Source: Escherichia coli
GTDB taxonomy: Bacteria > Pseudomonadota > Gammaproteobacteria > Enterobacterales > Enterobacteriaceae
Assembly (NCBI RefSeq): GCF_003334255.1
Contig: NZ_QOWU01000015.1
Strand: one strand, 5' to 3'
Length of the DNA: 64,000 bases
The position numbers and the translations under genes are program-made. Shown piece by piece: positions 1 through 155 of this stretch; the first letter of the stretch is position 1, and each line of letters opens with the position of its first letter. Under the pieces are notes generated by a model. It saw nothing but the letters and a program-made list of their open reading frames with translations, searched no databases and had not been told where the DNA came from.

Positions 1-71
1 AATCGGTGGAGCTGCATGACAAAGTCATCGGGCATTATCTGAACATAAAACACTATCAATAAGTTGGAGTC

Positions 72-155
72 ATTACCACTGATTGCCGATACCTGATTAA
101 ACGGGTCATCAAAATCATCATTGCTGTTTTACAGCTGATCCTTCTGTTCTTATAA
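72..155 (+). CDS. ShoB-like small hydrophobic type I toxin ORF; reading frame open from 63, no in-frame ATG/GTG/TTG, ATT at 72 is the only candidate start
   Basis: Translation ...ITTDCRYLIKRVIKIIIAVLQLILLFL* matches my recollection of the ShoB toxin; lies convergent to yfhL as in K-12; in-frame TAA at 60-62 closes the frame upstream. Confidence 0.4.
   Translation: MTTDCRYLIKRVIKIIIAVLQLILLFL

Follow-up and report, generated by a model that had tools for sequence, protein, structure and literature searches.

The shoB/ohsC locus of Escherichia coli is a type I toxin-antitoxin system composed of ShoB, a 26-aa membrane toxin, and OhsC, a small RNA (RF02495). In a survey of 2,212 genomes, the locus was full in 98%, interrupted in 1%, and absent in <1% (PMC11264685). 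The same study described promoter hexamers for shoB (-35, GTGACC; -10, TAAAAT), found the AAGGAA ribosome-binding site (RBS) to be 100% conserved, and reported that the RBS and the 26-aa ORF are conserved in >99.9% of loci (PMC11264685). Within minutes of ShoB overexpression, 98% of cells are depolarised (PMC8309996).

The intact gene in the K-12-type sequence (J53) reads ...TTGTTTAAGGAAAAACGA ATG ACT GAT TGC CGA TAC... and encodes a peptide beginning MTDCRY..., the complete 26-codon product being MTDCRYLIKRVIKIIIAVLQLILLFL. Its start context is ...TTTAAGGAAAAACGA ATG ACT GAT TGC..., and the intact gene of MB06232 reads ...AAGGAAAAACGA ATG ACT GAT.... In an intact locus (L002), the promoter hexamers lie at positions 1282 and 1306, which are 216 and 192 nt before the ATG at 1498, and the 5' UTR is ~180 nt in length. 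The native spacing between AAGGAA and the ATG is 6 nt, with an anti-Shine-Dalgarno (SD) duplex of -6.1 kcal/mol. Comparison with Rfam placed ohsC (RF02495, 106.8 bits) at 1099-1175 on the minus strand, 322-398 nt before the shoB ATG. A segment of the shoB 5' UTR, GCAGCATGCACCCTCAA, at ~1408-1424 of the same sequence, can be paired by complementarity with the OhsC 5' end, and pairing between the two is predicted. The locus is nearly universal in the species: a 481-bp shoB/ohsC query found a match in 5,425 of 5,426 genomes and was matched over at least 80% in one uninterrupted place in 5,340 of them.

The DNA analysed here, termed the window, is a stretch of 64,000 nucleotides from E. coli that probably represents the start of a draft-assembly contig. 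An ORF at 63-155 translates to VGVITTDCRYLIKRVIKIIIAVLQLILLFL* and is preceded by an in-frame TAA at 60-62. From position 60, the codons read TAA GTT GGA GTC ATT ACC ACT GAT TGC CGA TAC CTG ATT AAA CGG GTC ATC and continue to the stop as AAA ATC ATC ATT GCT GTT TTA CAG CTG ATC CTT CTG TTC TTA TAA. Scanning of the whole frame revealed no ATG, GTG, or TTG; the near-cognate codons present are ATT-72, which is the first, CTG-93, ATT-96, and several ATC and CTG codons within the hydrophobic core. A preliminary description had recorded a ShoB-like toxin frame that is open only from 63, is closed upstream by the TAA, lacks ATG, GTG, and TTG, and offers ATT at 72 as its candidate start, and translation of the window bore out each of these readings. 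The assignment to ShoB also held, in that positions 78-155 (plus strand) are identical to codons 2-26 (TDCRYLIKRVIKIIIAVLQLILLFL) and the stop codon (TAA, 153-155) of the annotated shoB gene (WP_000128776.1) in J53, a K-12 derivative, MB06232, and B-1109.

When window positions 1-360 were compared by BLAST with 5,426 complete E. coli genomes, the query split cleanly in two. Bases 78-360 matched the shoB/yfhL locus, at up to 100%, and bases 1-77/78 matched features annotated as IS1 transposase in thousands of records, on both chromosomes and plasmids. The breakpoint carries an ambiguity of 0 nt: base 77 is the last base of IS1, and homology to shoB starts with codon 2, whose first base is 78. 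Across the junction, the window reads ...AAGTTGGAGTCATTACC followed by ACT GAT TGC CGA TAC..., with the IS1 side ending in ...GGAGTCATTACC directly before ACT GAT TGC....

Positions 1-77 (plus strand) comprise the right end of IS1, namely the final 77 nt of a 768-bp element that shares its orientation with shoB. They are identical (77/77) to the corresponding part of an annotated IS1A copy from E. coli H1827/12. That copy is 768 bp in length, extends from GGTGATGCTGCC to GGAGTCATTACC, and carries a 9-bp duplication on both flanks. A 54-nt IS1 end used as a query gave an exact match at 24-77 on the minus strand, where 0 chance matches were expected. The 3' end of insB (the InsAB' transposase frame, ...SVELHDKVIGHYLNIKHYQ*) was located at 3-62 on the plus strand by translation and by reference to the annotated IS1A coding sequence, the InsB C terminus in window 1-77 being ...ELHDKVIGHYLNIKHYQ*. 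The annotated IS1A family transposase coding sequence of H1827/12 (L001) terminates at 2562, leaving 15 nt to the end of IS1 at 2577, and this position is equivalent to window 60-62; an insB frame that ends ~15 nt inside the right end is a property of IS1 and is found in the window. Judged by sequence, the TAA at 60-62 is the insB stop codon, which closes the frame upstream.

The right terminal inverted repeat of IS1, GGTAATGACTCCAACTTATTGAT, is present as an exact match at 55-77 on the minus strand, over its established extent of 23 bp. Complete IS1 copies have the left end GGTGATGCTGCCAACTTACTGAT, of which this right-hand sequence is an imperfect inverted version. This repeat contains both GGAG (66-69) and ATT (72-74), and the odd codons VGVIT, including ATT-72, are by the same comparison part of the terminal repeat. 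Indeed, ATT-72, the TAA, and all bases before 78 are generic IS1 sequence that occurs at IS1 junctions in all genomes matched. For this reason, we judge that neither ATT-72 nor the stop at 60-62 was shaped by evolution at shoB. As a separate observation, the insB stop shares its frame with the shoB remnant, with the five codons VGVIT between them; read-through of this TAA would add ShoB residues 2-26 to the IS1 transposase, and the chance that the two would share a frame by accident is 1 in 3.

Inspection of the sequence on the shoB side of the junction showed that the gene is native from base 78 onwards and foreign before it. The 26-codon ORF lacks its ATG, codon 1 being replaced by the IS1 end. 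The bases before 78 are IS1, with no AAGGAA ~6 nt before an ATG, and the 5' UTR with its OhsC-complementary site and the promoter hexamers of shoB are not contiguous with the window ORF. An Rfam scan of window 1-700 returned no match, the position expected for ohsC being before window base 1. Downstream, yfhL, murR/yfhH, pgpC, tadA, mltF, and purL are colinear with and identical to those of related genomes. The convergent neighbour yfhL, encoding a 4Fe-4S ferredoxin, lies at 349-609 on the minus strand, as established from the ORF list, homologous annotation, and an exact protein match; its presence beside the remnant shows that what is left of shoB is still in its native chromosomal position. 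An intact GC-rich hairpin of 13 bp is present 3' of shoB at 173-206 (plus strand) in the minimum free energy fold of 1-215 and is identical in the K-12-type sequence. This hairpin is probably the shoB transcription terminator; it was not called by a simple terminator scan because its T-run is short. The 3' arm and tail of the hairpin, GCACCTTTAATAAC (window 197-210), resemble the predicted OhsC target GCACCCTCAATAAC (L002 1414-1428), a resemblance that is probably coincidental.

The nearest relatives of the window carry an undisturbed locus. Window positions 13,000-37,999 (25 kb) are ~100% identical to E. coli G1/2, MB06232, and B-1109, and MB06232 shows 0 mismatches to the window in the 2,000 nt past the junction. 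A Shigella origin, which had been considered in view of the IS1 load and the absence from complete E. coli genomes, is rejected on the strength of this 25-kb identity and the lack of any other IS1 end in the 64 kb. In both MB06232 and B-1109, acpS, shoB, and yfhL follow one another uninterrupted, with shoB annotated as WP_000128776.1. Given that the closest relatives are uninterrupted, the insertion is recent and specific to the strain or its sub-lineage. Consistent with this distribution, an 80-nt junction probe produced no single-piece match by BLAST against the 5,426 complete E. coli genomes, only two-piece joins in which IS1 lies elsewhere upstream of shoB. The exact 35-nt junction gave 0 matches in GTDB species representative genomes and 0 in JGI metagenome contigs. 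The exact junction rests on one assembly. A search for listed IS interruptions gave no match within the text of the supplement file covered (PMC11264685).

A second type of disruption was observed close to this locus. The draft contig GCA_053982155.1 (L009) matches the window at 100% identity across 18 kb, yet its yfhL gene is truncated at the position equivalent to window 562, and positions 1-208 of the contig consist of unrelated sequence containing LexA-box-like palindromes. Four complete E. coli genomes have a matching yfhL junction, which is covered by a gene encoding a DinI-like family protein. This suggests that the yfhL junction represents a prophage integrated in yfhL, ~400 bp from shoB.

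The identity of both halves of the sequence, the exact position of the breakpoint, and the intact state of shoB in the nearest relatives were all observed directly. From these observations, IS1 has very probably inserted exactly between the shoB ATG and codon 2, and shoB is an ordinary gene that has been knocked out by the insertion. The upstream TAA and the VGVIT codons are explained because IS1 sits at this point. The minimal model for this event is as follows: a 768-bp IS1 would have transposed into chromosomal shoB, landing precisely between the ATG and codon 2, and the window would begin 77 nt before the right end of the inserted element. The sigma-70 promoter, the ~180-nt 5' UTR, the AAGGAA RBS, and the ATG would then lie 768 bp upstream, beyond IS1, or would have been lost; both cases place them beyond the window.

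The structure is most probably that of a simple insertion. In that case, IS1 would be complete, and the 5' half of shoB together with ohsC would be expected beyond it, behind a 9-bp duplication of ACTGATTGC. The far side of IS1 would read ...GAATGACTGATTGC and continue into the IS1 left end, GGTGATGCTGCC..., or, written over a different length, ...AAGGAAAAACGAATGACTGATTGC and then GGTGATGCTGCCAACTTACTGAT..., and would presumably encode only M-T-D-C plus a few codons from the IS1 left end. Neither another IS1 end nor the left-end sequence occurs elsewhere in the 64-kb window. By analogy with three other IS1 insertions, the target duplication of the window should be ACTGATTGC, with its expected right-hand copy at 78-86 on the plus strand.

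These three insertions lie in the acpS-shoB intergenic region of ~400 bp, and each is a simple insertion of a 768-bp IS1 with a 9-bp duplication directly after the IS1 end. The element in H1827/12 (L001 1810-2577) is at -240 from the shoB ATG and is associated with the duplication AGCAATATT. That of PO06101 (L022 473-1240) is at -393, inside the ohsC terminator stem, with the duplication AAACCCCCG, and that of LHM10-1 (L023 473-1240) is at -226, where it abuts the shoB -35 hexamer, with the duplication CAAGATTAA. All three are in the same orientation as shoB. When the window is included, the acpS-yfhL region looks like a recurrent local target of IS1, with an orientation bias of 4/4.

IS1 was also encountered elsewhere in related genomes. 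Those carrying the rare Hmp allele of the window have IS1 in yphF (L012, OZ249094.1) or yphE (L014, UARY01000011.1), as well as an IS3-family element, and the lineage that shares this allele seems to have an active IS1. The corresponding regions are at ~21-23 kb in the window, where yphF and yphE are both intact. In exact protein matching, PurL was too common to be informative, whereas the Hmp allele marked the lineage, in loci that end ~3 kb before reaching the junction.

The sequence available covers the right side of IS1 only, and a different history for the left side must be weighed. An IS1-mediated deletion or inversion, by which the shoB promoter, the ATG, and perhaps ohsC were deleted or relocated, would leave the same right-hand junction. 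IS1 is known to promote adjacent deletions, and the source strain appears to be IS1-active, as judged from the related genomes with IS1 nearby (L012 and L014). Set against this are the three other IS1 events at the locus, all of them simple 768-bp insertions with 9-bp duplications, and the fact that simple insertion is the commonest outcome. We therefore regard a deletion or inversion as unlikely, and its consequence for the remnant would in any case be the same, namely a toxin ORF without its start and promoter.

Of greater consequence for function is whether the remnant could be expressed from within IS1. IS1 insertions sometimes activate neighbouring genes, as in the acrEF and bgl cases, and read-through transcription from IS1 into the remnant is possible. 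Transcripts reading out of IS1 might be translated from ATT-72, perhaps after ribosomes have terminated at the insB TAA, to yield a 28-residue product, (M)TTDCRYLIKRV..., equivalent to ShoB plus Thr and free of both OhsC and the native 5' UTR. ATT-72 is in frame and is preceded by GGAG at 66-69, the sole SD-like motif, whose anti-SD duplex of -5.9 kcal/mol is close to the native value of -6.1 kcal/mol. The insB stop is in frame only 9 nt from ATT-72, and neither the hydrophobic core nor the downstream hairpin is disrupted. By contrast, the GGAG motif ends just 1-2 nt before ATT-72, as compared with the native spacing of 6 nt, and an ATT start supports initiation at no more than about 1% of the level of ATG. 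CTG-93 and ATT-96 have no SD. Few ribosomes would reach the end of insB, since InsAB' requires a rare -1 frameshift (annotated with the note "programmed frameshift"). A promoter and terminator scan of window 1-400, in which 77 nt of IS1 are visible, found no sigma-70-like promoter, and all bases in question are generic IS1 sequence. Moreover, constitutive ShoB synthesis beyond antitoxin control would be expected to be counter-selected, given the 98% depolarisation that follows overexpression (PMC8309996). Translation of the remnant from ATT-72 is accordingly considered very unlikely.

A stronger version of the same idea, that the IS1/shoB junction constitutes a new expression unit in which an ATT-initiated ShoB variant is coupled to translation of the IS1 transposase and escapes OhsC, is extremely unlikely. 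Were it true, synthesis of a membrane toxin would be coupled to the activity of a mobile element. The preferred reading remains that of a knockout by insertion. Severed from its promoter, 5' UTR, RBS, and ATG, the remnant is, as far as sequence can indicate, most likely a null, untranslated toxin allele, that is, a pseudogene generated by insertional inactivation.

It is scarcely credible that the junction is an assembly artefact in which a contig end was mis-joined to an IS1 k-mer and the shoB gene of the strain is in fact intact. The window does start exactly 77 nt into a multi-copy repeat, a position that would be typical of a short-read de Bruijn contig end (e.g. k = 77), and the junction is missing from the 5,426 complete genomes, the GTDB representatives, and the JGI metagenome contigs. 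However, the break coincides with the final base of the terminal repeat of IS1, which is what transposition produces and is improbable for a random mis-join, and contig ends at repeat edges normally derive from reads that span the boundary between repeat and unique sequence. Indeed, a contig end at a repeat would itself account for the left junction lying beyond the window and for the absence of that sequence from complete genomes. Finally, loss of the ATG by point mutation or small indel (ATG to ACC), or an error in the quoted reference peptide, can be rejected, for apart from a superficial appearance of ACC in place of ATG at 75-77, shoB homology stops abruptly at base 78, the 77 bases upstream are all IS1 and not shoB 5' UTR, and the reference ATG ACT GAT TGC encodes MTDC.

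These results bear on the three explanations that had been offered for the missing start codon, and they uphold that account in part. The suggestion that the allele is start-defective was right, but the cause had been missed, this being insertion of IS1 rather than a point change or small indel. Translation from a rare codon at ATT-72 fares poorly, given that this codon belongs to IS1 and follows its SD by 1-2 nt. The reference peptide MTDCRY... had been quoted correctly, as the K-12-type sequence of J53 confirms, and the proposal that the quoted peptide concealed an indel is refuted.

For annotation, it follows that the feature should be described as an IS1-disrupted shoB pseudogene and not as a toxin gene with a non-canonical start. 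Both the gene and the element are known, and the event is an ordinary case of insertional inactivation; published data already place interrupted loci at about 1% among E. coli genomes (PMC11264685). It nevertheless provides a natural toxin-null allele at a near-universal, conserved locus, consistent with ShoB being dispensable, and adds one more case to the acpS-yfhL region as an apparent recurrent target of IS1. More generally, oddities in the first bases of a contig or window should be compared with the ends of insertion sequences before unusual biology is proposed.

In comparison with the described shoB/ohsC system, the window has the same position beside yfhL, and codons 2-26, the stop codon, and the downstream hairpin are identical to those of the K-12-type gene, whereas the window ORF has no contiguous ATG, AAGGAA RBS, 5' UTR with the predicted OhsC-pairing site, or promoter. 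In comparison with IS1 (IS1A), the right terminal 77 nt are matched exactly, insB stop and terminal inverted repeat included, and the break falls at the last base of the element, as in classical insertional inactivation, with 77 of the 768 nt being visible in the window. The insertions of H1827/12, PO06101, and LHM10-1 share locus, element, and orientation with that of the window but leave the toxin ORF intact; among the four, the window insertion alone splits the shoB ORF.
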